Part shown: piece after piece, positions 7,499-24,256 of the stretch
Layout: every line of letters starts with the position of its first letter
How positions within the stretch are numbered: position 1 is the first letter of the stretch
Virus record (IMG/VR): IMGVR_UViG_3300045747_000435
Coordinates: 1-45,479 of that record
DNA from: a virus
Direction: 5' to 3' (one strand)
Length of the DNA: 45,479 nt
Made by a program: the position numbers and the translations under genes
The notes under the pieces: generated by a model
What the model was told of the DNA's origin: nothing
Databases searched by the model: none
What the model saw: only the letters and a program-made list of their open reading frames with translations

Positions 7499-10380
7499 AC
7501 TAATCTCCCCGCACGTTTAGCCATTGCTTGCCGAATGACACCTTCGACTACTTTCGCGTTGGACGCGATAAGCGCGGGCATCATTGATTGAATCTGCGCA
7601 ACCGTCTGCGCAGAGGCGTTGGGTGCGCTGATGGTGATGGGTTGGTTGACGATCACTGCACCGCCCCCGCCGCCTTTGAGGGACACCGGGATACGCTTGC
7701 CGTCTGGCAGCGGCACAAACGCTTCGTTCATGGAACCCTCGCCAAAGAGCGCAAGCTGCGGGCTAGTAGCTACCCCACCAGACGCATAGGCTTTGAGCGG
7801 CATGGGGCCGTCTGAGGTCATCACCCCACCCGTTGCGAAGCCGAATGCGGACTTGATGAATGAAGCTGCGGGGCCGGTTACGCTGGCGCGAACCTGCATA
7901 CGGATGATGTCGGCAATGATCTGGTCGAACAGTTGGCGCGACACATCCTTGCCAGTGGTGGCCCAGGTAACCAGGGCATCTTCCATACCCTTGAACGCGC
8001 TGGTGAACAGGTTCTCGCTGGCCTTGGCGACATTGCTCACATCGTCCAAGTAGTTGTTCAGTGCGCGGCTGGCACCAGACTTCCAATCAGCATCACCTGC
8101 CTTTAACTTGCCGTAGTACTCTTCCCAAGAGGCAATAGCCTTGTCCTGGGCTTCGTTGGCGACCTTCAGCGCGTCAGCGTAATCTTGCGCGTCCTGTGCG
8201 CTGCGCTTGGATTTCAAGTACTTCTGGGACGCGGTGTCCCGTTGTCCTTGGAACTTGTCGATGATCTGGTTCTTGGCCGAGTCTTGGCTATTTTGGGAAG
8301 TGCCCTTGGACTGCGCACCCAGTGTCCTGTCATACCCCAGTTGTAAGGTGTCCAGGTAGTCCTGCGCGGCCTTGCGGGCCTCTTCGTAGGCGTTGGTGAT
8401 CTTACCCAGCCCGGTGGCCTCTTGGATGTCCAGAATCACCCCGGCGGCGGCGGCAGTTGCACGGGCCTTTTGGCGTTGCGCCTGGAGGTCGAATATCTTT
8501 TTCTCTTGGTCCTGCTTCGCAATCTGGCGATCCAGTTCAGTGGCACCAATCAGTTTGCGTTGACGCTCACGATCTATTTCATCGGCCAGGGCGCTATCTT
8601 CTGCGTCGGCAGTGAGTTGCAGGAACATGCGCTTGGAGTCGTAGTAATCCTTTTCGGTGATCACACCAGCACTGCGCAAACCCTCAAGAATCTTTTCCCC
8701 GTTGCTGTACGCGGATGCTTGCGCTTCATAGGCTTTCTTGATCTTTTCCTCATCGAAGGACGCCTTGGCTTTGTCGAGTTGCTCGCGCTTTGCCATCTCA
8801 CCCGTGTCGGTGTACTTCTTGATGATCCCGGCTCGCAGTTCACCGTAGTCCTTGGTGGATATTCCCCCGGGAACCCCGACCAGACCTTTGTACTTGTTCT
8901 CAGCAGAAAGTAGTTCTTTGCGCTGTTGGAGTTCCTTGCTCAGATACTGGTCATGGTCCTTGTCGAACTGCGCCTTCAGATCAACCTGTTTCGCATCTGC
9001 GGTGTCGTAGCCCGCCATTTGCTTGCGCAGGTCCACCAGCGTCTGCAACGCGGCCATCTGCGCCTTGATGGCATCTGCTTTCGCTGGGCTGGAAAACACG
9101 GTGCCGTGACCGTCAGCGGACTTGACCTTCAGAGACTCCAGACTGTCCTTTAAGGCTTGCAGTTTTGTCTCTGGGGTGGTTTCCCTGCCGATATTCAGCA
9201 CGCTGTCCCACATGTTCTTGAACCAGGTGCCCACGTCCCGGGTAGCCGACTCTAGAGTTCCGAGGTTGGCTTTCAGGTTGTCCATGCCGTGGTTGGACGC
9301 ATCTGCAAATGCCTTCTGCGCCAAGGCCGCTGCCTGCGCAGACTTACCTTGCTCATCGAGGGCTTTGATCTGGTTGTACACCTCAAGCGTGAGGTAGTGC
9401 ATCGTGCTGTTGAGTTTCAGGCTGGCCCCAACCGGGTCTTTGCCCAACTCAACAAATTGCTTAACGGTATCGGCAACAGCAACACCCGTTTCACGTTGGA
9501 TGCGTATCGCTGCCGCTGCCATCTTTTCAAGTTGGTCGCCGCTCAGTTGGCCCGACCCCGCAAGTGCTGCCAACGCTTCCGCTGCCGCGCCTTTGGTGGA
9601 CCCTGTGACCTGGGACACGCGCATCGCCATCGCGGCCAACGCGCCAGAGGTCTGCCCAGCATAATCATTGGTCTGCACCAGGGCTTTATTGAACTCCTCC
9701 GCTTCCTTGCGACCCGCCAGGAATGCGTAGCCCAGTGTCCCAGCCACGGCCACCGCAATCGTCAAGGGGTTGATCAGGCCGGCGACATAGCCACCAATCG
9801 CGCTGACCGCTGGGCCAATGCCGCCGAACATGTCCTTTAACTGCCCACCCTGTTGGAGAAGCACAGTTAAAGGTTTTTGCCCACCTTGCAGGCCAACAAC
9901 AATGTCGGTCATCTGCGCGGGCACGTTGCGCATCGCAGCGGCCATTGCCTTCTGCGACATCTCGTATTTCTGCATCGTCGGGACTGCGGCCTCGACTGCC
10001 GCTGTCGTTGCCTTTTGCTGCACCTCCATCGCTTTCAGACGCTGAAGTCGCTCTTCCATCCCGGGGGTGATCTCGACGCCACGCTCTTGCGCGAGGGCAC
10101 GTTGAAAATCAGCAGTGCCTTTGGCCCCAGCGGCCATCGCGGCTATTTGTCTTTCAATACCCTGAACCATAGACCGCTGGGCGCGATCCAGGTTCTCGGC
10201 AGCTTTCGCGGGGGCGTCACCCAGCGAGGTCAGAGACTTGTTTGCTTTGCCGCTGGAAGTGACGATCTTGTCGGCCATGCCCTCGACTGCGGCACCCGCA
10301 GTCTGCGCACCCTTCTCGACCTCGGTGACATCCATCGAAACTTTGGCCTGGATGTGGCCCGCGCCTGTTGTGCCCGTCAT
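7495..10380 (-). CDS. Tail tape measure protein (961 aa)
   Basis: Long Ala/Gln/Lys-rich helical protein with a hydrophobic GxxxG-rich segment. Canonical position after the G/G-T chaperones. Confidence 0.9.
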   Translation of the reverse strand: MTGTTGAGHIQAKVSMDVTEVEKGAQTAGAAVEGMADKIVTSSGKANKSLTSLGDAPAKAAENLDRAQRSMVQGIERQIAAMAAGAKGTADFQRALAQERGVEITPGMEERLQRLKAMEVQQKATTAAVEAAVPTMQKYEMSQKAMAAAMRNVPAQMTDIVVGLQGGQKPLTVLLQQGGQLKDMFGGIGPAVSAIGGYVAGLINPLTIAVAVAGTLGYAFLAGRKEAEEFNKALVQTNDYAGQTSGALAAMAMRVSQVTGSTKGAAAEALAALAGSGQLSGDQLEKMAAAAIRIQRETGVAVADTVKQFVELGKDPVGASLKLNSTMHYLTLEVYNQIKALDEQGKSAQAAALAQKAFADASNHGMDNLKANLGTLESATRDVGTWFKNMWDSVLNIGRETTPETKLQALKDSLESLKVKSADGHGTVFSSPAKADAIKAQMAALQTLVDLRKQMAGYDTADAKQVDLKAQFDKDHDQYLSKELQQRKELLSAENKYKGLVGVPGGISTKDYGELRAGIIKKYTDTGEMAKREQLDKAKASFDEEKIKKAYEAQASAYSNGEKILEGLRSAGVITEKDYYDSKRMFLQLTADAEDSALADEIDRERQRKLIGATELDRQIAKQDQEKKIFDLQAQRQKARATAAAAGVILDIQEATGLGKITNAYEEARKAAQDYLDTLQLGYDRTLGAQSKGTSQNSQDSAKNQIIDKFQGQRDTASQKYLKSKRSAQDAQDYADALKVANEAQDKAIASWEEYYGKLKAGDADWKSGASRALNNYLDDVSNVAKASENLFTSAFKGMEDALVTWATTGKDVSRQLFDQIIADIIRMQVRASVTGPAASFIKSAFGFATGGVMTSDGPMPLKAYASGGVATSPQLALFGEGSMNEAFVPLPDGKRIPVSLKGGGGGAVIVNQPITISAPNASAQTVAQIQSMMPALIASNAKVVEGVIRQAMAKRAGRLV

Positions 10381-10381
10381 G

Positions 10382-11007
10382 CTATTCCTTCGCGTTCAAG
10401 ATGCTGATCGCTTCTGCCTCGGCAACGCGCATATCCGCGAACAGGTGGTCGTAGTCCTGCGGCGATAGGTTCATGCGGTCCATGAGGTGAAACATCACGT
10501 TGTAGTCAAGCCCTATGACCCCGCCCATGCCCACTCGCCACTGAGTGCCGAGGTTGCCGAACAGGGTTATAACGGCTTCGTTTTCGGGCCAGATTTCTAT
10601 GACCTCTTCACCGAAGTCCTCGGGCCGCAACCCGGCAGCTAACATCTCGGCTTCGTTGGTTGCCGGGGCGTAAACTGCCTGGACGGCCCGCTTCAGTTTC
10701 CCAGGCGTTTGCTTGTCAGTTCGCGCATGTACGTTGACTGAATCGCTTCAAAAGCACCCAGGTAGTTGTTCAACAACTTGTCAACGTGTTCCACATCGAA
10801 TGGTTCTTCAAGTTCCCATCCAGACGCGATGTCCATGATCGCCTCAACCCATGTGCGTCCTTCAGCTTCCAGCATCGAGAGCAGTTGCTCACGGGTGCGG
10901 CCTTTGAACGTGAATTCAACATCGGCAGTGCCCTCACCTGGGACGGGGATGGCGACGATTGCCGTGAAAGTGGGTTTCGGTGTAAGAGTGAATTTGGTCT
11001 TTGCCAT
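10382..11007 (-). CDS. Tail assembly chaperone G-T fusion made by -1 programmed frameshift at 10696-10702 (T part is DUF1799-like)
   Basis: The -1 frame is open from the slip site through the ATG at 10645 to the stop at 10382. The T part (GLDYNVMFHLMDRMNLSPQDY...) resembles DUF1799. Confidence 0.7.
10693..11007 (-). CDS. Tail assembly chaperone G
   Basis: 104 aa, located between the tail tube and tape measure genes. Ends ...KRLGN* with the slippery heptamer just before the stop. Confidence 0.8.
   Translation of the reverse strand: MAKTKFTLTPKPTFTAIVAIPVPGEGTADVEFTFKGRTREQLLSMLEAEGRTWVEAIMDIASGWELEEPFDVEHVDKLLNNYLGAFEAIQSTYMRELTSKRLGN
10696..10702 (-). promoter_or_regulatory. -1 ribosomal frameshift slippery heptamer G_GGA_AAC
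   Basis: Minus-strand reading is CTG GGA AAC TGA. This is X_XXY_YYZ in the correct phase, immediately 5' of the G stop codon. Confidence 0.75.
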
Positions 11008-11059
11008 GATGATTTTTCGGTGGAATTAAAAAGACCCGACAAGGTGCGACCAAGCGGGT

Positions 11060-11104
11060 ATAAAAACCTGCGGCCCCCGGGATACCCCAGGGCAAAACCG
11101 CAGG
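11060..11104 (-). terminator. Rho-independent terminator after the major tail gene
   Basis: Minus strand has a CCUGCGG...CCGCAGG outer stem enclosing a GC-rich inner stem, then UUUUUA. Lies 13 nt after the stop at 11117. Confidence 0.45.
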
Positions 11105-11116
11105 CGATGGCAACGA

Positions 11117-11761
11117 TTACGTTGTGTAGCGAACCGGGCGACCTTGCAGGGCGCAACCCACCTTCACAGACATCAGGTTGCCCTTGGTCATGGACGGGGT
11201 CTCATCCATCGCAAAGATGCCGTTGTAGAGGATGAACCCGCCTTGTGGCAGCGTGGCCCGCAGTGCGGTAGTGGAGCGGGTCAGCGCGACTGCCTTAACC
11301 GCTTGGTAACCAGCCAGCGAAGGATCGTCAGCGATTTCGATGGTCAGCGACTGTGCGCTGGTGGTCGTTGGGATTTGGTAATCCGAATTGGACTCCAGGA
11401 AGCTGTAGGTCTGATACTGGGGATCGCCACCGCTGGAGGTGCAACCGATGATCTGGCTCACCTGGGTCCAGGTGGTGATCTTGGTGATCGTGCCAGTGCC
11501 GGAACCTGCGGGGTAGCTTGTGGTGCTGGTGCTGTCGAAACCTTCCAGCACAACGGATGTGCCGGTGGGTGTCTTCACACGGAACACACGGTTGTTGGCA
11601 TTGGCCCAGCCCGAGGAGAAGGCAACATAGTCGCCAGCCACCAGGGTGTTGGTAACGGTCAATACCGCTTCCGATGCGTTGGTCGCGGCGGTAACGGTCA
11701 GAGGTGCGGCATATGCGCTGGCGATTGCCAGGACGATACCATTTGGGAGACTAACGCTCAT
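11117..11761 (-). CDS. Major tail (tube) protein
   Basis: 214 aa and Thr/Ser-rich. AGGAG SD. Position between the tail terminator and the chaperones. Confidence 0.75.
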   Translation of the reverse strand: MSVSLPNGIVLAIASAYAAPLTVTAATNASEAVLTVTNTLVAGDYVAFSSGWANANNRVFRVKTPTGTSVVLEGFDSTSTTSYPAGSGTGTITKITTWTQVSQIIGCTSSGGDPQYQTYSFLESNSDYQIPTTTSAQSLTIEIADDPSLAGYQAVKAVALTRSTTALRATLPQGGFILYNGIFAMDETPSMTKGNLMSVKVGCALQGRPVRYTT

Positions 11762-11796
11762 AGGGTACTCCTAAGTTAAAAGCGCCCTATTCGGGC

Positions 11797-11830
11797 AAGA
11801 AAAAAGCCCCGGGGATTTCTCCACGGGGCT
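11797..11830 (-). terminator. Rho-independent terminator between the DUF3168-like gene and the major tail gene
   Basis: Minus strand reads AGCCCCG-(12 nt)-CGGGGCU followed by UUUUUU. Confidence 0.5.
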
Positions 11831-11848
11831 TTGCTGGGGCGGGCAGAT

Positions 11849-12202
11849 TTATCGGTCTGCCCAAATACTGAAATCTTGGATCGCGGCATACACCGGGATG
11901 TCGGCGTCGAAACTTGCGTGCGGTGCGCCGGAGGGTTCCGCTTGGAACACCGTGGTCATGCGCAGCGCGTCCTCGATACTTTGGATCAGCGTGTTGGCCT
12001 CGGCACGGGTGTCGGACCACACGTTGATCTGCATCACCGCATTGCGCTTGTTGGGGATCAAGCGATCAAGATGATTGACCGCTTGCCCGCCGATTTGCTG
12101 ATACGTCACATACGGGCGTGCAGTGGTCGCTGGCGCGAAATCGGGGAATGACCTCGGGCACACGCCTTGCAGTAGCGTGAAGAGTTGGGACTCAAGACTC
12201 AT
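11849..12202 (-). CDS. Tail terminator / tail completion protein (DUF3168-like)
   Basis: 117 aa with the pattern P.....A..PYVTYQ......N..D......V.INVWS. Position before the tail tube gene. Confidence 0.65.
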   Translation of the reverse strand: MSLESQLFTLLQGVCPRSFPDFAPATTARPYVTYQQIGGQAVNHLDRLIPNKRNAVMQINVWSDTRAEANTLIQSIEDALRMTTVFQAEPSGAPHASFDADIPVYAAIQDFSIWADR

Positions 12203-12803
12203 CAGCGGCCTCTTGCATTTTTGTTAAAAGTACTTCTTCCATCGCTGCACGGGCAGCACCTTCTTTTTGTGCAATCGCGGGCCGCACAAACGGGTGCGCG
12301 GCGACTTGCCGAGGTGCGGCGAGTGGCTCCGACTTCACAGTAACCCACTGCCCTTTTTTCGGGCCATCCTTAACGATGAACGTGCGGTAGCGCATCATGT
12401 GCCCGTACTCCACCAGGTGCCCGTGCGGAGCCTTGCGTGCGTTCCAACTGGCGTGGTACTCAGCGACCTTGCCGTCTTCGGAATTGCTCTTGCTGTACAC
12501 CTGATAGATCGAGTCCTTCAGGTTGCCAGTTTTGGCACCCAGAGCGGCCACCTTCAACGGTGCATTCGCGAGGCCCAGGACGTTCATCTTGATCTGGTCG
12601 TAGATCACCTGGATGCCCGCCTGCGCGGCTGGGCGGACAGCGTCACCAGCGGCATCGGAAAGGTTCGCCAACAGTTGGCCGAAACCACTGGTGTCCACCG
12701 AGATGCCCAAGGTGTTCTTTCCCGGGGGAACGTGCTTGCCGTCGCCCCTGACGTAATCGCCCCAGTTGTGCTTCTTGTTCTTTGAACCCTTGGGGCGTGC
12801 CAT
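12192..12803 (-). CDS. HK97 gp10-family neck protein
   Basis: Pattern ...HLVEYGH....PFVRPA... and position after the head closure protein. Confidence 0.65.
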   Translation of the reverse strand: MARPKGSKNKKHNWGDYVRGDGKHVPPGKNTLGISVDTSGFGQLLANLSDAAGDAVRPAAQAGIQVIYDQIKMNVLGLANAPLKVAALGAKTGNLKDSIYQVYSKSNSEDGKVAEYHASWNARKAPHGHLVEYGHMMRYRTFIVKDGPKKGQWVTVKSEPLAAPRQVAAHPFVRPAIAQKEGAARAAMEEVLLTKMQEAADES

Positions 12804-13121
12804 TTAGGTCACCAGTTGGCACACCAGATCGGTGTACTCCTTGCCTTCCATGTCCATCAAGACGGCCTTGATGTCATAGACGTTGGTGCCTACCACTGCA
12901 CGCATCCCGGCGTTGAGTCCTGCACGGTAGCGGATGCGGATGCTGGCCTTCACCGTAGAGATGTCGGCATCGCCCTGGATCGATGAAACACCAGAGAGGT
13001 GCTTGACGTTCGCCCACACTGTCGCCAAATCGGTCCAGGTGAGGTATGACTGACCCACCGCATCCTGTGCGGTCACCGGCTGGCGCAGGGTCACCCGGTT
13101 GTTGAGTTGGCCCGCTCTCAT
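12804..13121 (-). CDS. Head closure / head-tail adaptor protein (SPP1 gp16-like)
   Basis: 105 aa. Begins MRAGQLNNRVTLRQP and carries ...VWANV... and ...YDIKAV..., typical of that family. Confidence 0.75.
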   Translation of the reverse strand: MRAGQLNNRVTLRQPVTAQDAVGQSYLTWTDLATVWANVKHLSGVSSIQGDADISTVKASIRIRYRAGLNAGMRAVVGTNVYDIKAVLMDMEGKEYTDLVCQLVT

Positions 13122-13693
13122 GCTGTTGTTATCGTGTAGCGATCCAGAAGACGGTCAACATAGTCCATCTTCATCAGGGTCGCCCGCTCCACCACTGTGG
13201 CTTCGCGGAATTTGTACATGGTGCCCACCTGAATCTTGATCCACGCCTTGATGGGTTCAGGGATCACGGTGGCGTCGGCATAGCCTGCAACGTAGCGCAC
13301 AGACACCGCGTTGATCTGCTCTCGCGTGACGGGCCAATCAGTGTTGTACGCGGGCACAACATAGGCCGAGTTGTCGCCGTCAGCGTTGTCCAGCGAGTAC
13401 AGGTTGCTGGCAAGCGTTTGCAGCACCCCGTTGGTGTCGTAGTACTTCAACGATGTGATCGACTGCACAGGGGAGCGAGTCAGCTCAAACGCTGCGGGAA
13501 AACTGTCCAGCGTCAGTTCCCAGGTCTGGGGCATCAGCACGCGGTTGAGAATCTGCTCCGCTTGCTCTGTAGCCGCGACGATATACGCTGTGATCAGCGC
13601 TTCATCGTCAGCGGCGTCCACCTTGCAGTGCAGCTTTGCTTCGGCCAGGCTCACCGGGGTGGTGGTTGCCGCAGTGATGAGTTTGATTGCCAT
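13118..13693 (-). CDS. Head-tail connector protein (gp6-like)
   Basis: N-terminal ...VSLAEAKLHCKVD..DDEALITAYIVAATEQAEQILNR is typical of the Phage_connect_1-like family. Confidence 0.75.
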   Translation of the reverse strand: MAIKLITAATTTPVSLAEAKLHCKVDAADDEALITAYIVAATEQAEQILNRVLMPQTWELTLDSFPAAFELTRSPVQSITSLKYYDTNGVLQTLASNLYSLDNADGDNSAYVVPAYNTDWPVTREQINAVSVRYVAGYADATVIPEPIKAWIKIQVGTMYKFREATVVERATLMKMDYVDRLLDRYTITTA

Positions 13694-14943
13694 TATCTTG
13701 AAATCCTTGCGGACCCTGTTCTTGCTGATCGCGTTCCGCCTGTATGCGCAAACCGCGAACTGCTTGATTCACTCCTACCCGCATACATCGCACCGGGGAT
13801 GACAGCGAAGCCTGTTGTCAAAGTACCCAATCCCGAGGTGCTAACACCCTGAGATGCGGCCATCAAAATCTTGGTGGTCAACTGGGCCGCTGATATGCAC
13901 TTGGCGGCATTGCCCGCCGCCCAGGCCGATGACCCTGCGGTCAGACTTGCCGATGACCCTGTAGTGGCCGCAACGCTCGATGAGAGTCGAATCGTTGTAA
14001 GCAGCGCGGCAGTCTGCGCGGCAGATACCGATTGGCTTGCGGCCATGCCCACCGAGGTGGTGAGTGCCGCGCTGGACGCCGGGGAAGCAGTGCTGCTTGC
14101 CACCAGGGCCGCAGACGCCGCGCCAGCACTCAGCGATGCGCTGGTGGATGTCACCGCGCTGTTGCTGGCCGCTGGCCGAATTGCTGTTGTCAACGCCGCA
14201 GTGGAGCCTGGTGCTGCCGTCGCGGATGCCGATAGGCCAGACCCCAGAGCGGTGAGTCCTGCCGTCGCGCTGGTAACCGCGTTCGCACTCGCTGCCAACG
14301 TGACTGCGGTGGTCATTGCCGCAGTAGCGGTGGTGACTGCCGTCACGCTGGCGGCTGGGCGGATAGCTGTTGTCAGCGATGCAGTGCTGGACGTTGCCCC
14401 TACGCTCGACGCCACCAATACCGCGCCAGCACCGTTTGCGGTGAGCGATGCGCTGGTTGATGTGGCCGCAGAGTTGCTGGCTGCAACCGGGATCGCCGTC
14501 GATAGCGCGGCAGTCCAGGAACTTGTCGCGGCCACCGATGCTGCAAGACCGGCACCGTTGGCCGTCAGAGAGGCCGCAGATGCGGTCACCGCAGAGTTTG
14601 ATGCAACGACACCAACTGCCGTCGATAGGCCCGCTATGGATGCTGTGGACGCGCTGTTGCTGGCCGATACCCAGATTGCTGTTGCGATTGATGCGCTGGC
14701 CGCTGTTATCGCGCTGTTGGACGCCGCGAGTGCAGCACCTACACCGTTTGCCGTCAGCGATGCGCTGGCCGCTGTTACCGCGCTGTTGGACGCCGAGAGC
14801 GCGGCACTGGTTGCAGCCGCACTCAGGTTCGCAGTCGATAATGTCGTTGCCGCGTTGGCCGCGACCAGGGCCGCGCTAGTCGCTGCTGTGCTTGCGGGTA
14901 GCGCACCTAACGGCAGTCCTGATAGTGCGCCAAAGCCGAGCAT
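13693..14943 (-). CDS. Ala/Ser/Thr-rich low-complexity repeat protein (416 aa), putative virion fibre/decoration component
   Basis: AAGGGG SD 7 nt before ATG 14943. Its stop overlaps the next gene's start (TAATG at 13691-13695). Repeated ASNSAVTAASASLTANG-type motifs. No charged residue in the first 194 aa. Confidence 0.6.
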   Translation of the reverse strand: MLGFGALSGLPLGALPASTAATSAALVAANAATTLSTANLSAAATSAALSASNSAVTAASASLTANGVGAALAASNSAITAASASIATAIWVSASNSASTASIAGLSTAVGVVASNSAVTASAASLTANGAGLAASVAATSSWTAALSTAIPVAASNSAATSTSASLTANGAGAVLVASSVGATSSTASLTTAIRPAASVTAVTTATAAMTTAVTLAASANAVTSATAGLTALGSGLSASATAAPGSTAALTTAIRPAASNSAVTSTSASLSAGAASAALVASSTASPASSAALTTSVGMAASQSVSAAQTAALLTTIRLSSSVAATTGSSASLTAGSSAWAAGNAAKCISAAQLTTKILMAASQGVSTSGLGTLTTGFAVIPGAMYAGRSESSSSRFAHTGGTRSARTGSARISR

Positions 14944-14954
14944 GAATTACCCCT

Positions 14955-15848
14955 TTACCAAGCGGTGATGATTACTAAGCCCGCGCCACCTTTTCCGCCT
15001 AGCCCCGCCGTTCCGCCGGTTACTGCGCCACCGCCACCGCCACCGCCAGAGCCATAGCCACCGTCGCCGCCGTTACCGCCGCCGGAAATCGTCGCCACCG
15101 GGAAACCCGACCCGCCGCCGCCGCCGCCATTGCTGTAAATCGGCCCTGTAAAACTGTAATTCCCTGCAAATCCCTTGCCGCCGTTTACGCCCGACGTCCC
15201 GGCTGCCCCTGCGGCGGCCGCTTTTGAAAAGTTGTTCGCGTTGCTCCCCGCGCCACCGGCGAATGCCGCCGCCGCGGACGGGGTCGCGCCTCCGCCTCCG
15301 CCCGTCGGTATTCCGCCTGTGCTGCTCGGTGACCCGCTCGCCCCGACTGCGCCCGCCGCCGCTCCCGCCGCGCCGCCCGCGCCGCCCCCGGCAAAAGCAT
15401 AGATCCCGAGTCCCGATAAACGAGATCCCGCGATAGTGTTGACGCTCCCGGCGGTTACGGCGTTACCGATAGCGGCGTTTGCTATCAAAATAGCCTGCGT
15501 CGAGTCGTTATTGAAATACACCGCGGTACTAATTGCCGCGCCCGCGCCTGACCCTTGCGCCCCGCCTTGGATATATAAAACGTCAGGTAAGGCCCACGCC
15601 GGAATTAATAGGGTCGATTGCCCGCCTGATCCGCCGCCCGCTCCGCCGAGTGCTGTGGTTCCGCCCGTGCCAACCGTTCCCGCTTTACCGTTCCCACCCG
15701 CGCCGATAGCGAGGATAAAAATCATGGAAACCCCGCGAGGTTTAACCCAAATTTGCGCCGGAGAGTTAGCCACGGCGACCGTCACCGTCCCAACAAATTG
15801 TTGGACATCTGCGGGCGTGTATGTAGGGACGTGGAAAGCGTCAAGCAT
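14955..15848 (-). CDS. Glycine-rich domain protein (minor tail/fibre-type Gly-rich domain)
   Basis: IWVKPRGVSMIFILAIGAGGNGKAG...GGAGGGSGG...GGGGGGSG...GGKGGAGLVIITAW resembles the Gly-rich domain of actinophage minor tail proteins. Confidence 0.6.
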   Translation of the reverse strand: MLDAFHVPTYTPADVQQFVGTVTVAVANSPAQIWVKPRGVSMIFILAIGAGGNGKAGTVGTGGTTALGGAGGGSGGQSTLLIPAWALPDVLYIQGGAQGSGAGAAISTAVYFNNDSTQAILIANAAIGNAVTAGSVNTIAGSRLSGLGIYAFAGGGAGGAAGAAAGAVGASGSPSSTGGIPTGGGGGATPSAAAAFAGGAGSNANNFSKAAAAGAAGTSGVNGGKGFAGNYSFTGPIYSNGGGGGGSGFPVATISGGGNGGDGGYGSGGGGGGGAVTGGTAGLGGKGGAGLVIITAW

Positions 15849-15851
15849 GAA

Positions 15852-16076
15852 TCACCCCAATGAGGGAATTTGCGCCGTTGTCAAAACGGGGATGTCGGTG
15901 GTCACTACTACAACCACCTGCTCAGTAGGCAGCGCGGGGGTTGGCGGGACGGATGAATACTCCAGATTGCCTGTCAAAGTAACTCCGTTGGAGTCGATGA
16001 CGTATGTGGCACCAGAGTCATCTGTCACCTGAGTCCCGGCGGAGCCGTCCTTGAAGTAGATTGTCAGATTAATCAT
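15852..16076 (-). CDS. Hypothetical protein (74 aa)
   Basis: Tightly packed in the operon (ATGA-type junction at 16076). No motif recognised. Confidence 0.45.
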   Translation of the reverse strand: MINLTIYFKDGSAGTQVTDDSGATYVIDSNGVTLTGNLEYSSVPPTPALPTEQVVVVVTTDIPVLTTAQIPSLG

Positions 16077-16540
16077 CAGTATTTACCTCCAACAGCAACT
16101 ACGTTCCATCCAGTAGTACCAGCACCAGTTGACGTACCGAATGCCACGCAAATCTTGAAGCCCGGGGGGATTGGCATGTTGATTGGCATCTCCAAGTGCG
16201 AATTCGCTGTGGTCTGCGACACGGTAATCGCCGGGAGTGATATTTCGTTGATAAGGTGGGTGTTCGCAGAGGTGTTGCTCACCAGCGCACCAGAGGTGAT
16301 GGTTGTGGTCGAATCAGCTAGAAATATGCGGCACACAGTCGCAATCACCGTCGAGATGCTCTGGAACAACAGACGCTGGCAATATCCCCCATTGGTGGCA
16401 TCAGCAACCCATATTGGGTATATCGTGCCTGTGCCGTCCTGCGCGGTGTTGGCCGTAGGACCGAGTAGCGTAGTCGCCGCCAGCGTGTCAGTCTGAATGT
16501 CTCCGACACGGGTGTATATGGGGTCACTATTTCCGGGCAT
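16076..16540 (-). CDS. Hypothetical structural-module protein (154 aa)
   Basis: Thr/Ser-rich and beta-like. Located within the insertion block. Confidence 0.5.
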   Translation of the reverse strand: MPGNSDPIYTRVGDIQTDTLAATTLLGPTANTAQDGTGTIYPIWVADATNGGYCQRLLFQSISTVIATVCRIFLADSTTTITSGALVSNTSANTHLINEISLPAITVSQTTANSHLEMPINMPIPPGFKICVAFGTSTGAGTTGWNVVAVGGKY

Positions 16541-16550
16541 TTAATGCTCC

Positions 16551-17576
16551 TTAAGGTAGGGCTTGACCGCGAGCCTGTGCGACTTGTAGCCCGATGTTTG
16601 CGTTGTCCACCAACTCAGCGTTGGCAGTGAGGAAGATGTCTTTGCTGCCAGCCGCGAAGCTAACAGCGGCACCGGCGTTAGACGATGCGCGGATGACATC
16701 ACGGGATAAAGCCCCGCCAGCGACACCGCATGGGGCGGGTGTGAACGTGGTGCTGTACCGGCCCACGCCTTTGGTGACTCGCACGTCGTCCATGTAACCG
16801 ACGAACGCCCATGTCGCGCTGATCGGACTGTCGTTGCCCAGTACCGGCCTCGCTGCGCCGACGGTGTAGACCGTCGAGTCGGTAAAGTTAGACCCCTCTT
16901 GCACCCCATTAATGAATAATCTGGTGACACCCGACACCCGACTGACGGCGATATGCGTGAACGAGGTGGTCGGTATGGTCGTGCCCCCCGTGATCTGAGT
17001 CGTGGCCCCCGTCACATAGATCACCTGACCCGTCGAGTTGATATACAGCGACTTGCGAGTAGTGTCCGCGCCGCTTGAAATCTGGTCGTTGTAGAGGCCC
17101 ATCATCGTTAAGGCCGCCGTAGGTTTGATCCACATTTCGACGGTCCAATCGCCCGACCCGAAGGCGAACGCCGCGCTGCCGTCACCCGTGAGTCCTGTGC
17201 TGGCCCCGCTGAAATACGCCGACGCGGTCCCGTACTTAAACGTCGAGGTGTTCAAGGTCACGCCGTTGGCGACGTTTGTCCATGTCAGAGGTGTGGGGCT
17301 AACGTCGGTGATCGTTGTGCTGCCGTTGGTGCCGTCAAACTGCAACAGAGTTTTCACGCTGGCCCACGACCCATCCCCGATATTACTGAACGCACCCTTA
17401 CCCACCTCCCACGCACCCGTGGATGAGTCCACGCAGCAATACGGGACTGACGGTGCGCCGTTGGGCAGAGCAGTTCCAAACGCCTGATAGGAAGTTGGGG
17501 GCGTACCCGCGAGAGCGAACGCACCAGTGCCGGTGGTACTGGTAACGTCGCGGACTCGGTCAGCTAGGATCGGCAT
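16551..17576 (-). CDS. LamG/concanavalin A-like lectin-fold domain protein with phage-fibre-type N-terminus
   Basis: FDG...FAFGSGDWTVEMWIKP...FTHIAVSRVSGVTRLFINGV...GYMDDVRVTKG is a Laminin_G_3-type signature. The N-terminus RVRDVTSTTGTGAFALAG recalls fibre N-termini. Confidence 0.7.
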   Translation of the reverse strand: MPILADRVRDVTSTTGTGAFALAGTPPTSYQAFGTALPNGAPSVPYCCVDSSTGAWEVGKGAFSNIGDGSWASVKTLLQFDGTNGSTTITDVSPTPLTWTNVANGVTLNTSTFKYGTASAYFSGASTGLTGDGSAAFAFGSGDWTVEMWIKPTAALTMMGLYNDQISSGADTTRKSLYINSTGQVIYVTGATTQITGGTTIPTTSFTHIAVSRVSGVTRLFINGVQEGSNFTDSTVYTVGAARPVLGNDSPISATWAFVGYMDDVRVTKGVGRYSTTFTPAPCGVAGGALSRDVIRASSNAGAAVSFAAGSKDIFLTANAELVDNANIGLQVAQARGQALP

Positions 17577-17577
17577 A

Positions 17578-18216
17578 TTAGGAGTCGATGGACAGAGTCA
17601 ACGCCGAGATCGCGAACGTGGGGGCTGGGTCGCCGTTGTTGATTGTCTTGACCGTAGTCAGAGGCTCAACTATCAACATGTTGCCAACCGTTGTTGCGTC
17701 ATAGAACGCTGCGGCCCATACATACGATGGCCCGCTGGTTGCAGTCGCGCCAAATGTCAGCACCGTATTGTTCGCGGTTGTGGGCACACCCGTTCCGCTG
17801 GACACGGCAGTGGTTGTCAGACCCTGTGTGCCCGCATAGTTTGCAGTCGATGCCGCAGTGTTGGACCGTGCGTAGCCGGTGTATGCCGCTTCGACGGCAG
17901 TCCCCGCACGGATGGCAGCGGCCTGCTCAGTGAAAGCGGCAGTGCCGTCTGTGATCACTTCCGAGTTGACACCAGGGTACAAAGTGCTTTGCGCGGCAGC
18001 GGATGTGCCAGCGGTGGTGCATTTGTAGAGGTGGGTCTTGCCGTCGTTGGCTGTCAGCGAAATGGTGTCGTTGAGTGCGTAGACAGTCGAGTTGCCACGC
18101 GGACCCTTGGTGCTGGTGAGCAACCCAATGGACAGCGCAGTCGTTGGAAAAGTGTAAGCAGTCGCACGCAGCAACTGATCCACCAACTTGTTGGCGAGAT
18201 ACGATGTGTAAAGCAT
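17578..18216 (-). CDS. Conserved phage protein of unknown function (212 aa), probable virion component
   Basis: Pattern YLANKLVDQLLR...YTFP..L.IGLLT...YARS...N.VLTFG.A......V.AAAFYDATTVGNML...INNGD...F.I.AL.LS.D recurs in many prophage structural regions, from memory. Confidence 0.55.
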   Translation of the reverse strand: MLYTSYLANKLVDQLLRATAYTFPTTALSIGLLTSTKGPRGNSTVYALNDTISLTANDGKTHLYKCTTAGTSAAAQSTLYPGVNSEVITDGTAAFTEQAAAIRAGTAVEAAYTGYARSNTAASTANYAGTQGLTTTAVSSGTGVPTTANNTVLTFGATATSGPSYVWAAAFYDATTVGNMLIVEPLTTVKTINNGDPAPTFAISALTLSIDS

Positions 18217-18232
18217 TGGGTTCTCCGCTTAA

Positions 18233-18403
18233 CTATTTCAAGGACTCGGCGTAAGCCACTGCCTCGGGGTGAGGGTCGAGTTCATCGCTGGCGTTTGCCG
18301 TTTCAGCATCCACTTCAACAACGTCATCGCATTCGCCAAATTGGCCTTTAGCCAAAACGCGGGCCTTAACGGGGCCGGTGTTTTCAGTTTTCTTCGTCGC
18401 CAT
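18233..18403 (-). CDS. Hypothetical small acidic protein (56 aa)
   Basis: ATG 18403 is preceded by a GGAG SD 6 nt upstream. The track start at 18415 is TTG. Confidence 0.5.
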   Translation of the reverse strand: MATKKTENTGPVKARVLAKGQFGECDDVVEVDAETANASDELDPHPEAVAYAESLK

Positions 18404-18410
18404 GTTCTGC

Positions 18411-18445
18411 TCCAAAAAAAGAAAAGGCAGGCCCGTAGGCCCGCC
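18411..18445 (-). terminator. Rho-independent terminator directly after the major capsid gene
   Basis: Minus strand reads GGCGGGCC-UAC(G)-GGCCUGCC followed by UUUUCUUUUUUU. Confidence 0.7.
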
Positions 18446-18463
18446 CGTTTCAGATTGCGACGA

Positions 18464-19723
18464 TTAGGTCGCGCTGTTTGCGTAGTAGCGGGTTGCGCCA
18501 CCAGCGTCGATCAAGTTGCCGCCGCTGCGCATGAACGCAACGAAGCCCACTTGGCCCAGCAGAGTGAATGCAGAGTCGGTCATGCGGAACAGGGTCAAGT
18601 CCATAACATCGCGCACGGTGTACTTGTTCAGTTGACCGAACAGGATGGACTTGGCATTCGCGGCCATGACAGGCATGTCCTGGTTGACGGTGATAGGACG
18701 GCCCATCAGCATGTCAGGGGCACCACCGTTGATCATCGCGTTGGCTTCATAGCCAGGAACGAAGATCGGACGGTTTTGCGCGTCCTTGATCTTGCGAATC
18801 ACCTTCAGCGAAGCATCGTTCATCATGTACCCGACACCGGCCTGGTTGCGGTAGGCTGGGTCCACGCTGTGTTCCAGGTCCACCAGATCGTCATAGATCA
18901 CCGACAGAGTCTGGCCGGTAAGACCAGTTTTGCCGACGCTGGAAGCAGTCAGCAAACCGTTGGGTTGGCCCGTGCCCGTGCCCACGGTGAAGTGGGTGTT
19001 CTGGATGCGGCCCAAGCGCATAGCCAGGATTTCCTGGATGTAGGCTTCGATGTCGATGAAGCTATCTTGCAACAATTCAAACGGGATGGCAATCTTCTTT
19101 GAGCTGTACTTGAACACATCCAAAGTGATGTTGCCGAACACGGTATCCAGAGCGGAAACAGCAGTGTTCTGGCCCACGATTTCACCAACTTCAGCAGTGG
19201 GGTCGGCCTTGGGGAAGTTCATGGTAATGCCGCTGCCGGTCTGGATGCGCTTGGCAACGCTGCGCATACCGCCATATGCCTTCATCATCACTTCCAAGGT
19301 CTTTTGATATTCCAGGGCAGTGGTGTATCCGCCTTCAGTCGTTGTCGTTGTGGACATCGCGTTGCGGATTTCAGGGGTCTGGCGGGCCAGCATGTGGTTG
19401 CGGTCTTCAGGAGACAGACCAGACATGCCGTTTGCCAAGAATGCTTTCAGGGCTTTGTTCTCACCACCTTGGGCACCGGGGATGCGAGTGGCAGCGTTCA
19501 GAGCGGCAGTGTGCTGCGCTTCGGGGGTGTCCAGTTGCAACTCGGCCATGCGTTTTTCGCGGGCCAGGTCGGCATCGACCAGTTCCACTTTCGCCAGAAC
19601 TTCATCCAATTTCTTGGAATCGGCTTCGGGCATGGCGACACCGGCGGCGTACTTGCCGTTCAGTTCTTGTGCTTCCTTAGAAAGCGTGTTGCGCAGGTTG
19701 CGCAGGTCTTGCAGTTTGCTCAT
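18464..19723 (-). CDS. Major capsid protein, HK97 family
   Basis: MSKLQDLRNLRN... delta-domain-like N-terminus, then HK97-type core motifs (...GGYT..., ...DLEHSVDPAYR..., ...FRMTDSAF...). AGGAG SD before ATG 19723. Confidence 0.9.
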   Translation of the reverse strand: MSKLQDLRNLRNTLSKEAQELNGKYAAGVAMPEADSKKLDEVLAKVELVDADLAREKRMAELQLDTPEAQHTAALNAATRIPGAQGGENKALKAFLANGMSGLSPEDRNHMLARQTPEIRNAMSTTTTTEGGYTTALEYQKTLEVMMKAYGGMRSVAKRIQTGSGITMNFPKADPTAEVGEIVGQNTAVSALDTVFGNITLDVFKYSSKKIAIPFELLQDSFIDIEAYIQEILAMRLGRIQNTHFTVGTGTGQPNGLLTASSVGKTGLTGQTLSVIYDDLVDLEHSVDPAYRNQAGVGYMMNDASLKVIRKIKDAQNRPIFVPGYEANAMINGGAPDMLMGRPITVNQDMPVMAANAKSILFGQLNKYTVRDVMDLTLFRMTDSAFTLLGQVGFVAFMRSGGNLIDAGGATRYYANSAT

Positions 19724-19810
19724 TTTTGAGACTCCTAAATGTGACTGCTCGCGCAAGTCGGGGGACACGAAAACCACCGGGCGGTGGCTGGCTCAGTTGC
19801 GCGAGGCGCG

Positions 19811-20578
19811 TTACTGACGGGTGGCGATCAACATCTTCACTTGACGTGATTGGTGATCGCGGTATTCGTTGCTGACCGTTTCGGGTTCAGGTGCGGGGGC
19901 GGGTTCTTCAACCTTGGGTTCAGGCATCGGGGCTTTGGCATACACCGACAAGTCCCATTCGTTTTTGGTCTTGCTGGGGCCGCAGACATCGCTCACAAAG
20001 CCCATCGTCTGGGCCTCACTGGCCGACATCCATGTCTCGGCTTGCATGAGGGTCAAGACAGCGTCTGTGGTCATGCCAGTGCGCTTTGCGTACTGGTCTG
20101 CGATCACGGCATCCACTTTGTCCAAAAGCGCAGCGGTGGCACGCATATCAGTGGCGTTGCCCATCGTCATGCACCAACCGCAATGGATCATAAAAAGTGC
20201 GCCGTCGCTCATCTCGATGGTGTCGGCAGCGGTGGCGACCACTGTGGCGGCACTCGCGGCCAGACCGTCGATGTGCGCGATCACATTGGCCTTGCAGTCG
20301 CGGATCGCGGCCACGATAGCTTGCGCGGCGAACACATCGCCCCCGGGGGAGTTGATGTGCAAGTGCAGGGTGCCGCCTTTGATGGCCCGCAGTTGCGGCA
20401 CCAGTGCCTCGGCGGACACGCCACCGTAGTAGTCAGCTTCCAGGTTGGTGGACACGATGCTGTCGTAGAGGTACATCGTGGACTCGCCGTCTGCCGTGGC
20501 AGCGGCCACCACAGAGCAAGGTTTTGCGTTGGCTTTGTTTCGCGCCACCAGCATCATCAAGCGGTTGTGCATCATCAT
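19811..20578 (-). CDS. Prohead maturation protease, ClpP/S14-like
   Basis: LHINSPGGDVFAAQAI...IDGLAASAATVVA...MIH motifs. Located between the portal and capsid genes. Confidence 0.85.
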   Translation of the reverse strand: MMMHNRLMMLVARNKANAKPCSVVAAATADGESTMYLYDSIVSTNLEADYYGGVSAEALVPQLRAIKGGTLHLHINSPGGDVFAAQAIVAAIRDCKANVIAHIDGLAASAATVVATAADTIEMSDGALFMIHCGWCMTMGNATDMRATAALLDKVDAVIADQYAKRTGMTTDAVLTLMQAETWMSASEAQTMGFVSDVCGPSKTKNEWDLSVYAKAPMPEPKVEEPAPAPEPETVSNEYRDHQSRQVKMLIATRQ

Positions 20579-21912
20579 TTGGCCTTTTTCTTTTCAGCGG
20601 GTTTAGGGTCCGCTGGCGCGGCATTTGGATCAGTCGGGGCGATGGCCTTGGTGACCTCATCGCCGCCATCCACTGGGGCCAGCAACTTCATGGAGCGGAC
20701 TTCGTTGACAGTGAGCCAGCCAGGTTCACCGGCGCGGCCCAGAGCCACGCGGAAAGCTTCGTTCTCGGTCTTCAGGTCACCGCGCTCGATATCAGTGACA
20801 TCAAACTCGACAAAATATTTCTGACGCTTGGGCCAGAACTTGCGGTTGATCTCTTGCTGGATTTTGGTCAGGTCGCGGCGCAGGGTGTACTTCACAAAAC
20901 CCTTGCCCATGTTCTCCTGGCCCGTGCCCCACGATGTGGTCTTCTCGGTGGACCCCACCATGAATGGAGGTACACCAAGCACGCGACAGATTTCTTCAAG
21001 ATTCCAGGATGCTGTTTGCAAAATCTGCGAATCTGCCTGGCTCAGTGTCAGTGGGGTGGCCTTGAGTCCGCCCGTAAGGATCGCTGGTTTGTGCGAGTTG
21101 CCGGAACCACCGTAAGCGTCCATCCATGTGGCCCGCAGGATTTCAACCTGCTCTTTGGTCATGTTGCCGGGGGTCTCCAACGCGAAGTCGGGGCGGGCAC
21201 CATTGGCAAAGAACTTTCCATTCCACTCGGCAGTCGCGATAGCAGTGCCAACCGCTTGACGTGCAGCGTAGGTGATTGGGCTGGGCGACATCACACCATC
21301 AAAGCCCAGCGACGGGACGTGCAGGATGTCGGCTGGGGCCAGAACGTACTGCGCACCCGCCAGTGGCGTCACCCGATACCAGAGTTTTCCGTTGATGTCG
21401 CGGAAGGGGTAGACGCGCAGCGGGTGATGCACACGCAATCCCGCGATGTCTGGAGAGTTGTAGTGCGGGCGGATGATCTCAGCGAACCCGTCGCCATAGA
21501 ACATCTTGCTGCTGATCAAGTACTCCCAGAACACTGCCGCCGAGATTTCATCATCAGCTTGCTCATTCAGGAACCACCAGTACGGGTGGTTTTTAGCCTT
21601 CTCGCGGCCAGTATCAGTGCGCTGGTAGATGTTCAACGGCAGCGTGCTGATAGCACCAGCAACCAGGGCCACGCAAGCGTAGACTGCCGACACCTTCATG
21701 GCCGTCGCTTCATTGACCAGCGATCCAGACGATGTGCTGAATCCCGAACCAATGGTGCGCACCAACTCATCAATGGTGAGGTTCTCGCGGGTCTGGTTCA
21801 GGTTCTGAACTGCGCGGGTCGCCTCTGGGCCGTTCGCACTGCGCCAAGCATTCAGCACAGCAGACCCAGGCACTTTGGCCTTTGCCTGTGCGATTTGAAA
21901 TGCTTGACTCAT
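20575..21912 (-). CDS. Portal protein, HK97 family
   Basis: 445 aa. Position after TerL. Typical ...SAVYACV..., ...PSPI..., ...PFMVG... pattern. Confidence 0.85.
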   Translation of the reverse strand: MSQAFQIAQAKAKVPGSAVLNAWRSANGPEATRAVQNLNQTRENLTIDELVRTIGSGFSTSSGSLVNEATAMKVSAVYACVALVAGAISTLPLNIYQRTDTGREKAKNHPYWWFLNEQADDEISAAVFWEYLISSKMFYGDGFAEIIRPHYNSPDIAGLRVHHPLRVYPFRDINGKLWYRVTPLAGAQYVLAPADILHVPSLGFDGVMSPSPITYAARQAVGTAIATAEWNGKFFANGARPDFALETPGNMTKEQVEILRATWMDAYGGSGNSHKPAILTGGLKATPLTLSQADSQILQTASWNLEEICRVLGVPPFMVGSTEKTTSWGTGQENMGKGFVKYTLRRDLTKIQQEINRKFWPKRQKYFVEFDVTDIERGDLKTENEAFRVALGRAGEPGWLTVNEVRSMKLLAPVDGGDEVTKAIAPTDPNAAPADPKPAEKKKAK

Positions 21913-23435: not shown

Positions 23436-23884
23436 GCAAGCAGCGGGTCATCCGCAAGTTCATCTCGCAACTTGCGCGATTGCGTTTCCAGTTTGCGGCT
23501 GGCCGAACTGTCTCGGGCGTCACCAGCGGCCTTGCCACCCATGCGCAGGGTGCGCATCAGGGCCATCTCGCGGCGGGCCAGTTGTTCCAGCACGGTCACC
23601 CGGGGGTTCATCACCGGGGTGCCGCGTGCGTTCTCCAGAACGGTGCCTTCGGCGTCCAGGTGCTTGGACTGCGCCTCGATGTCGGCCTGGGTGCGGGCCA
23701 ACTGCGCGGCCACCACCAGGTCCGCTGGACTCCACTCATCATGTGCCCGGGATAGCAGGATGCCGTCCCAAAAAGCCATGTCGGCTGGGCGCAGGGCGCA
23801 GTGCTTTGGCACCGCGTGCGTTTTGGCCGCGTTCACCATCGCCTTGACGGCAGAGGTGGAGGAGTCTGATCGTTGTTTGCGCAT
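23432..23884 (-). CDS. terS: Terminase small subunit (P27 family-like)
   Basis: 150 aa. Pattern ...FWDGIL...W...DL..AAQLAR......G.PV.NP... Immediately upstream of terL (ATGA overlap). Confidence 0.75.
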   Translation of the reverse strand: MRKQRSDSSTSAVKAMVNAAKTHAVPKHCALRPADMAFWDGILLSRAHDEWSPADLVVAAQLARTQADIEAQSKHLDAEGTVLENARGTPVMNPRVTVLEQLARREMALMRTLRMGGKAAGDARDSSASRKLETQSRKLRDELADDPLLA

Positions 23885-23888
23885 AGGG

Positions 23889-24182: not shown

Positions 24183-24256
24183 ATTCAATTTTGCAGGCGG
24201 CAAAGCCTGCGCAAGCGGTAGTGGCTATTTGTGGATACACGGGCCAGATGGCGCGG

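Follow-up and report, generated by a model that had tools for sequence, protein, structure and literature searches.

We analyzed a stretch of viral DNA of 45,479 nucleotides (nt; IMG/VR virus record IMGVR_UViG_3300045747_000435, positions 1 to 45,479), which is referred to as a whole as the window. Six genes are located on its minus strand at 13693–18216, between the gene of the major capsid protein (18464–19777; Phage_capsid, E 6e-60) and the gene of a head-tail adaptor (13118–13693, minus strand). We consider it probable, if not strongly so, that these six genes form a cassette which adds an accessory beads-on-a-string receptor-binding fiber, likely located at the neck, to an HK97-like siphophage.

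Read along the minus strand, the block starts with w212 (17578–18216; 212 amino acids, aa), which encodes a putative bead of the Gp80 family, and continues with w341 (16551–17576; 341 aa), a core protein with an inserted LamG domain, w154 (16076–16540; 154 aa), modeled as an eight-strand jelly roll, w74 (15852–16076; 74 aa), a small optional partner, w297 (14955–15848; 297 aa), an adhesin-like protein of beta-sandwich and polyglycine, and w416 (13693–14943; 416 aa), the candidate rope. The open reading frames (ORFs) were found at the positions given by an earlier reading made from the letters alone (the sequence-only reading), and the tight packing described there is seen as gaps of at most 11 nt or overlaps of the ATGA type. 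The stop codon of w416 overlaps the start codon of the adaptor gene, and the candidate rope gene ends inside this start codon. The adaptor itself is a gp6-like backbone protein of 191 aa (Phage_connect_1, E 6e-8; phrog_442, E 4.5e-26), and its gene adjoins that of a head-closure protein at 12804–13121.

The lead gene encodes a Gp80-family protein

The protein w212 scores 60.7 bits (E 2.3e-16; cut-off 27) in the Pfam family PF23140 ('Podophage GP4 fiber I protein gp80'). Fiber I of the Ralstonia podophage GP4 (PDB 8JOU), a structure attributed to Zheng et al. 2023 (J Mol Biol 435:168258), is reportedly composed of gp80 beads, a rope protein and the fiber-tail adaptor Gp77. When a profile of 27 members of the w212 family was compared with the gp80 chain 8jou_a, a match with E 9.2e-13 was obtained, and both halves of the fold are covered: residues 3–39 of w212 align to residues 4–39 of the chain, residues 128–207 to residues 62–136. 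The two halves are separated in w212 by about 88 inserted aa (residues 40–127), which are highly conserved. The entry 8JOU contains 10 copies of the gp80 chain.

Homologues of w212 (n=331) are mainly metagenomic and include some from Burkholderiales (Aquabacterium, Rhodoferax). PF23140 was present in 120 of 120 w212 homologues among the matches listed. The homologues are 60–85% identical to w212, yet the portal, terminase and capsid proteins of their host phages are unrelated or only 23–40% identical. A tblastn search of w212 against deposited phages gave no match, and a scan of the genome contigs for w212 returned one locus only. Judged by these alignments, we assign w212 with high confidence as a homologue of the fiber I bead gp80 of GP4. 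The sequence-only reading had called it a 212-aa phage family protein; the conserved family stands, and it can now be specified as a member of Pfam Gp80.

Weak matches of w212 were also found among the PHROG families, namely to phrog_240 ('head protein', E 2.4e-4) and phrog_20658 ('head decoration', E 3.4e-3). The former matches Gp80 proteins in general, including one at 6041–6550 of contig L034 with E 1.6e-26. It seems that phrog_240 is the Gp80 family itself, and its label probably reflects gene position and not evidence.

A second family of 139–155 aa and unknown function, phrog_644, was observed at the bead position heading other cassettes (L031, 10641–11105; L040, 1134–1553; L026, 2656–3090; also L041, L043 and L059). 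A remote homology to Gp80 found no support (hhalign probability 0.8%); phrog_644 may comprise beads that are analogous to Gp80 or only very remotely related to it.

The last gene is a candidate rope

The protein w416 consists of 30% Ala, 20% Ser and 14% Thr, in line with the Ala/Ser/Thr repeat protein described earlier. It is not mere low complexity: residues 22–376 are made up of 17 units of about 20 aa, spaced by 20 (nine times), 23 (four times) or 21 residues (three times), with the consensus Taa.LAASnsA.TastAsLT. This repeat region is preceded by an N-terminus of the form MLGF..LS..PLG and followed by an Arg-rich C-terminal tail. Identity at a lag of 20 residues amounts to 0.237, compared with 0.164 ± 0.017 in shuffled sequences (z 4.3), and 3 of 1000 shuffles matched this value at any lag. 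The same best lag of 20 was determined for GP4 gp79 (z 5.1; 1 of 1000 shuffles), which is encoded right after gp80 and is presumably, as far as sequence can tell, the rope of GP4.

Further candidate partner proteins of blocks led by Gp80 or phrog_644 were periodic as well: in all 19 of 19 the period lies between 20 and 24 residues with 9–27 units. Ropes beside w212-type beads have a period of 20 and the common consensus ..LAS.SA.T..SA.LTT. Beside phrog_644-type beads (L026, L031, L040, L059) the period is mostly 22–24 and the consensus differs, reading APTKGALTLTG..PTV in L031, AAQGAYALSGQAA in L026 and QTGNYSLSGNAASL in L040. This co-variation, the adjacency of the genes and the matching period in GP4 would fit repeats that each serve as docking segment for one bead monomer, as in the structure of Bas63. 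It is therefore likely, with moderate confidence, that w416 is a rope.

In two contigs the public gene call of the rope gene is on the wrong strand (L002, 11413–12258, 281 aa; L003, 1991–2833, 280 aa). There the plus-strand ORF of 370 aa is the one that resembles w416 and contains repeats of 20/43 residues. The window itself contains an ORF of 365 aa on the plus strand at 13871–14968, an antisense shadow of w416.

Adhesin-type proteins encoded between bead and candidate rope

The LamG and Gly-rich calls of the sequence-only reading were borne out by profile search and composition. Residues 138–268 of w341 match Laminin_G_3 (PF13385) with E 1.6e-16 (61.3 bits against 27.6). The remaining core of about 120 aa is split into residues 1–66 and 286–341, and the lectin-fold LamG domain sits in a loop between them. 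Cores of 116–125 aa without insert, which align to both ends of w341, are encoded in L025, L026, L060 and L061, and the counterpart in L024 has apparently two LamG-type insertions, as seen from two separate tblastn matches. A search of the single w341 sequence against PDB returned only a LamG-type arabinanase domain (E 3.6e-4). A likeness by eye between the w341 core and the N-terminal domain of the GP4 fibers gp75 and gp76 was rejected (hhalign 0.4%).

An AlphaFold2 model of w154 shows an eight-strand jelly roll (predicted local distance difference test, pLDDT, 73; predicted template modeling score, pTM, 0.72). No significant neighbor of this model was found in PDB, the best hits being folds like those of tumor necrosis factor and of fiber tips (E 0.015), and its neighbors in BFVD are uncharacterized phage proteins only. 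The family is large, with about 970 clusters at 50% identity (E ≤ 1e-3), and has no Pfam model. Its gene always lies directly upstream of that of a Gly-rich protein; only small ORFs of the w74 type intervene where present. Homologues of w74 occur in L024 (E 6e-51) and L059. Small ORFs like it are present in L059 and L060 and missing from L025, L026 and L061.

Gly accounts for 28% of w297. The model of this protein is of high confidence (pLDDT 84, pTM 0.83) and is composed of beta-strands and long Gly-rich stretches without regular secondary structure. It has no N-terminal docking helix, and beta-strands begin at residue 14. Foldseek matched it to the tail-tip chains 9d93_Qa/Qb of Bxb1 (E 1.9e-7) and to the fiber gp24 of the cyanophage Pam3 (7ypx_A, E 1.2e-4), and weakly to the glycine-rich domain of ALK. 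Many homologues of w297 contain PF21722 (Gly_rich_2). In w297 itself no Pfam family, PF21722 included, was detected at E ≤ 0.1, the PDB search with the single sequence gave a compositional match only, and tblastn against deposited phages gave no match. On the strength of its homologues and its modeled fold we assign w297 as an adhesin-like protein of beta-sandwich and polyglycine of the Gly_rich_2 type.

The genes of w154 and w297 also occur as a pair without bead and rope, which suggests that they form a portable adhesin tip. Such pairs were found upstream of the tail sheath gene in the myophage contigs L027–L030 and, using hidden Markov models (HMMs), in ten cultured Rhodobacter capsulatus phages including RcBaka (MW677509, L062). 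In RcBaka the pair spans 11998–13295 and consists of gp24 (E 3e-39) and gp25 (E 4e-51; 31% Gly), both annotated as hypothetical. RcBaka gp24/gp25 and their kin, encoded where a tail fiber is expected behind the J-like protein, are candidates for tail-fiber tip adhesins.

The six genes behave as a replaceable insert

Relatives of the window were gathered via the capsid protein; in ten of them the adaptor gene was present alongside the capsid gene. The closest is L031, with 90% identity in the capsid protein, 91% in the large terminase and 74% in the adaptor. Aligned to L031 by blastn, the window showed 77% identity over 18236–24157 and 71% over 9146–13709, and nothing between. The missing stretch, 13710–18235 on the minus strand, covers precisely the six genes except for the final 16 nt and represents the whole of the replaceable cassette. 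At the same site L031 carries 2.7 kb with three unrelated genes. Since the DNA homology stops at 18236 and restarts at 13709, we regard the block as an insert.

Among the ten relatives the distance from the capsid gene to the adaptor gene varies from 0.3–0.5 kb in L042 and L047 to 5.5 kb in L034. L042 and L047 are free of cargo and have at this position only a small ORF of 86–88 aa. Bead and rope cassettes occupy the site in L031, L034 and L040, a 505-aa protein resembling SGNH/GDSL esterases in L039 (11115–12632) and a fiber protein with collagen repeats in L038 (8296–9375). The site thus seems to be dedicated to surface-interacting appendages. From these alignments the six genes appear to be one horizontally mobile and swappable cassette, in whose place the relatives carry fiber-like cargo or nothing. 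This agrees with the accessory insertion proposed in the sequence-only reading, which had named a standard conserved arrangement among relatives as the finding that would speak against it; the synteny comparison gave the opposite, a variable site with boundaries at 13710–18235 relative to L031. Comparison of 13000–19800 with deposited phages by megablast gave no match.

Recurrence and mosaicism of the cassette in other phages

Using HMMs built from the window proteins, we traced the gene order in other contigs. In seven genomes (the window, L024, L025, L026, L059, L060 and L061) a fixed order was observed: a bead gene is followed by the w341 core, w154, an optional w74, one to three copies of w297, and a rope with the N-terminus MLGF..LS..P(L/I). 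L060 is a P2-like myophage prophage, in which the cassette (9184–14742) lies after gpD at the prophage end beside the integrase gene and comprises a 145-aa protein assigned to Gp80 by Pfam, the w341 core, w154, two small ORFs, two Gly-rich paralogues and a 559-aa rope of the MLGF type with 24 repeats. In L061, an SU10-like podophage, it is inserted between the terminase and portal genes. The cassette of L024 is flanked by genes of an adaptor-like structural protein, of Gp77 and of a connector protein.

Blocks led by a bead gene take different positions in other genomes. The block is found between Portal_Mu and Mu_F genes in L001, between a lambda-type portal gene and the protease-capsid genes in L002 and L011 (the portal type being confirmed by Pfam in L002 only), between an HK97-type portal gene and the capsid gene in L013, and between capsid and adaptor genes in the window. 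Many bead loci encode, one after another, the bead, a protein of about 200–260 aa, an Ala-rich repeat protein and a Gp77 protein of 94–103 aa (identified by Pfam and a local HMM), an order that mirrors gp80-gp79-gp78-gp77 of GP4.

The cassette is itself mosaic. Between the window and L024 the proteins are 90% (w154), 75% (w74) and 74% (LamG part of w341) identical, the bead only 33%. In L002 the bead is 79% identical to w212 and none of the inner genes are present. L024 further contains at 9122–9283, between the Gly-rich and the rope genes, an ORF of 53 aa with a lipoprotein-like N-terminus (MRFVLAALLTACS...), which may be a moron inside the cassette.

Expression signals and neighboring genes

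A terminator-like hairpin is located on the minus strand directly 3' of the capsid gene (stem at 18446–18425, T-run to about 18415). Its stem has nine pairs, seven of them G-C, and a loop of 4 nt, and is followed by TTTCTTTTTT, in agreement with the strong terminator described earlier behind the capsid gene. The block lies downstream of the hairpin, as stated in the sequence-only reading; an ORF of about 60 aa which that reading had not mentioned intervenes (18233–18415, minus strand), so that the hairpin is upstream of both this ORF and the cassette. No site resembling a sigma-70 promoter was found in 12500–20000, where 2.4 were expected, so the simplest reading makes the block a part of the late transcript.

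The intervening ORF encodes an acidic protein and is situated between the capsid terminator and w212. It is kept after the capsid gene in L031, L032, L033, L039 and L041 despite their differing cargo; the small ORFs found at the same position in L042 and L047 did not match it. Judged by this conservation it is a backbone gene and not part of the insert. An ATG at 18403 with GGAG in front of it is probably the true start of this ORF. The search of NCBIfam yielded no family for it and none for the six cassette proteins.

The tail has proteins of its own for the tape measure (lambda-type) and the distal tail (pb9-like) and a J-like protein, in line with the tail set described in the sequence-only reading. 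At the left end of the window, after the J-like gene, we noted genes of a GTA-type holin with three transmembrane segments (PF11351), of an M15 peptidase endolysin and of a DUF4376 protein, and an ORF of an HNH endonuclease adjoins the small terminase gene. These four lie on the minus strand at 92–544, 680–1108, 1754–2326 and 23889–24203. The G+C content is raised to 63–65% at 14–16 kb because of Gly and Ala codons, and we do not read it as a sign of foreign origin.

Rope termini and possible attachment

The ropes of the window and L031 belong to cassettes that are otherwise non-homologous, and their tails are alike (GGTRSARTGSARISR and GGSRISRIGSSRIAR). This likeness reaches beyond the 16 nt of shared DNA. 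The last genes of the rope type at the same site in L034 and L040 also end Arg-rich; the non-rope cargo does not. In loci carrying Gp77 the rope gene is followed by the Gp77 gene, an order which fits phage Bas63, where the rope is the N-terminal side of a single rope-collar chain. From these co-occurrences we infer that the C-terminal tail of w416 could be a neck anchor specific to the backbone and that the MLGF N-terminus could bear the adhesin set.

Short, repeated motifs of the form (P/E)(S/A)R-x-(Y/L)-x-(V/I) were seen near the C-termini of the ropes of L002, L011, L024 and L008, all from loci with Gp77, and at about residues 215–265 of GP4 gp79; they might be segments interlocking with the collar. 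A C-terminal motif 'SR-x-L-x-V' was considered as a feature shared by gp79 and the ropes of loci with Gp77 and not used, as a regular expression finds it in some ropes only.

A proposed accessory fiber and its alternatives

We propose that the cassette provides an accessory fiber that would be assembled as follows. Transcription of the late head operon would read through past the capsid terminator and yield, owing to a presumed attenuation, fewer copies than of the capsid protein. Dimers of w212 would line w416, with one repeat held by each monomer through beta-strand complementation, in the way solved for the whiskers of Bas63 and reported in the same work for fiber I of GP4. With w416 in the role of the rope, a flexible chain of about eight dimers would result. 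The Arg-rich C-terminus of the rope may be anchored at or next to the head-tail adaptor without a Gp77 collar, the adaptor being the putative docking partner. The proteins w341, w154, w74 and w297 would form a part binding glycans or surfaces, probably at the free N-terminus of the rope, because the MLGF-type N-terminus occurs only alongside these genes. Such a fiber could make a reversible first contact with surface polysaccharide, and a swap of the cassette could shift the host range. We are highly confident in the statements of homology and moderately so in the role of w416 as rope; our confidence in neck location and anchoring is lower. A second receptor-binding system, one of two options named in the sequence-only reading, is the best reading of these fiber- and adhesin-type proteins. 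The same reading had called the virion location not predictable. Because the GP4 gp80 fiber anchors around the head-to-tail adaptor, a neck location is predictable in principle from the homologue; since the Gp77 collar is absent in the window, location and anchoring are only inferred.

Several observations weigh against an accessory neck fiber. A local HMM for the Gp77 collar (PF23148) detected none in window ORFs of at least 40 aa; the same HMM does find Gp77 in L002, L008, L009, L011, L013, L015, L018, L024 and GP4. A Gp77-like domain hidden in the 191-aa adaptor was rejected as well (hhalign probability 0.06%), and for this adaptor no relative was found in PDB. The repeat signal of w416, a protein of low complexity, is moderate (24% identity at lag 20), and PDB sequence searches with GP4 gp79 and gp78, aimed at the rope chain, gave no match. 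The cassette lies far from neck genes in L060, beside the integrase gene, and in L061, between terminase and portal. The pair of w154 and w297 sits between large fiber-like proteins and the tail sheath in L027–L030, and in RcBaka directly after the J-like protein and a 443-aa fiber and before the holin. Finally, the best structural matches of w297 are the Bxb1 tail tip and the Pam3 baseplate fiber and not neck fibers. Separately, w74 and w154 were considered as the missing collar and discarded: Pfam Gp77 matched neither of them, and w154 models as a jelly roll.

The last three of these observations favor the main alternative, that tail-tip or side tail fibers are encoded here. The adhesin set, and perhaps the bead chain with it, would be mounted on the distal tail or J-like protein, comparable to the side fibers of lambda or the polyglycine proteins of Bxb1, and the position among neck genes would be incidental; a cassette that works from many genomic positions would suit this. 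We regard it as rather unlikely. Throughout the seven genomes the genes of the adhesin set lie between those of bead and rope or directly adjoin them, which argues for one assembly, and the bead homologues with solved structures are attached to the adaptor or neck. The block of the window overlaps the gene of the adaptor and is separated from the tail-tip genes by 6 kb, and w297 is without the helical N-terminal docking domain of Pam3 gp24. If the Gp80-like protein and its partners instead decorated the capsid surface as head fibers, similar to Hoc, the location in the head module right after the capsid gene would be explained, as would the weak PHROG labels of w212 and the position of the Gp80 gene after the portal gene in L001, L002 and L013; the upward-facing whiskers of Bas63 do touch the capsid. 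This decoration, the other option of the sequence-only reading, appears improbable. No match to a solved or curated decoration family was found in Pfam, NCBIfam or PDB, and the phrog_240 label has no traceable experimental basis, whereas the homology of the lead gene that is well supported points to a fiber protein at the GP4 tail adaptor. The cassette is furthermore found away from capsid genes (L060, L061) and with unrelated capsid types.

The variable cargo, the cassette at a prophage end beside the integrase gene in L060 and the lipoprotein-like small ORF inside the cassette of L024 could also be explained by a non-structural moron at a recombination hot spot, encoding, for example, cell-surface or exclusion proteins produced by the infected cell or lysogen, with only w212 as the relic of a fiber gene. 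Of the explanations considered, this one is the hardest to credit: the genes share their strand with the late genes and are translationally coupled to them, with no internal promoter-like site where 2.4 were expected; by eye none of the six N-termini resembles a classical signal peptide; every recognizable fold resembles virion fiber parts; and the gene order of the cassette is conserved across seven genomes.

Of the components of the proposed neck fiber, the Gp80 bead, the LamG domain and the polyglycine adhesin are known already, as is the beads-on-a-string principle in GP4, Bas63 and Sf14. Our literature search found such fibers solved in these three phages and no siphophage example. Within the literature searched, four points appear to be new: the principle in an HK97-like siphophage without a Gp77 collar; the rope as a family of 20–24-residue repeats co-varying with the bead family; the w341 core, w154 and polyglycine adhesin as one nested and portable unit; and a cassette swappable across sipho-, myo- and podophage contigs. 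More tentatively, we can picture the cassette as a self-contained plug-in fiber for any tailed-phage body plan, independent of Gp77, in which the rope acts as a length ruler (9–27 repeats), the 20–24-residue repeat is a docking code read by a co-evolving bead (Gp80 or phrog_644), and a portable adhesin head at one end is combined with a neck-matched Arg-rich tail at the other.

If this plug-in picture is true, host range could be re-programmed by a single cassette swap. If the proposed neck fiber itself is real, the beads-on-a-string principle would be widespread and horizontally mobile over all three tail morphologies. Ropes would be recognizable from sequence by their periodicity of 20–24 residues, with the repeat type tracking the bead family, and the fiber could be combined with polyglycine adhesins and lectin domains. 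Names could be given to large 'hypothetical' families, such as w154 with its roughly 970 clusters and the Gly-rich partner in cultured Rhodobacter phages. The capsid-adaptor junction would be a swap site for host-recognition gear, which would be useful for host-range prediction and engineering. How a fiber is anchored without an immunoglobulin (Ig)-like collar is a structural question raised by the window.

Comparison with known systems

Accessory flexible neck fibers of repeated beads are also found in the Anabaena myophage A-1(L) (gp82, gp81, gp80). These fibers are self-assembling, carry a distal carbohydrate-binding module and are encoded apart from the other structural genes. They differ from the proposed fiber in that trimeric beads are joined head to tail without a rope and are anchored via gp82 to a 15-fold neck protein; the two systems are likened here by description, and no homology is claimed.

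The w297 model resembles the polyglycine adhesins, among them Pam3 gp24, gp38 of the Salmonella phage S16 and the polyglycine minor tail proteins of Bxb1, in its combination of a beta-sandwich with a glycine-rich lattice. In Pam3 and S16 this lattice is the host-recognizing part, and the tip of Pam3 gp24 resembles the S16 adhesin gp38; in Bxb1 the polyglycine domains sit on the central fiber. Unlike Pam3 gp24 with its N-terminal helical docking domain, w297 starts without one, and it is encoded in a neck-side cassette together with the jelly-roll protein w154 and not beside a baseplate or long tail fiber gene.

The neck whiskers of Bas63 and Sf14 (Felixounavirus myophages) are structural relatives of GP4 gp80, and they are compared with the window through this shared relation to GP4. 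As proposed for w212 and w416, whisker dimers are threaded on a neck rope whose anchored end is the C-terminal side. In Bas63 the dimers surround the rope 'like beads on a string', and the rope runs in grooves of the whiskers and completes the incomplete beta-sandwich of each monomer. The Bas63 rope is, however, an N-terminal extension of the Ig-like collar protein and holds only two dimers, the 12 whiskers alternately face up and down, and no adhesin genes are associated. The collar, located at the interface of adaptor and head-completion proteins, is described as homologous to that of GP4.

The closest comparison is with GP4 itself, in which a 15-mer of the 93-aa Ig-like fiber-tail adaptor rings the head-to-tail adaptor. 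According to the Bas63 paper, GP4 fiber I is built from five gp80 dimers carried by a separate rope protein, which is interlocked with the Ig-like collar. The window differs in being that of a siphophage and not a podophage, in its missing Gp77 collar, in the additional conserved insertion of about 88 aa in w212, and in the four adhesin-type genes nested between bead and rope. Its candidate rope has 17 repeats as compared to five dimers in GP4, which we read as about ten rope segments. In both phages a bead of the same sequence family is accompanied by a nearby repeat protein with a period of 20 residues, in GP4 by gp79 next to gp80, and the GP4 fiber genes, too, follow those of the capsid and adaptor. 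The GP4-like order of bead, rope and Gp77 is likewise kept in metagenomic loci whose beads are of the w212 type.

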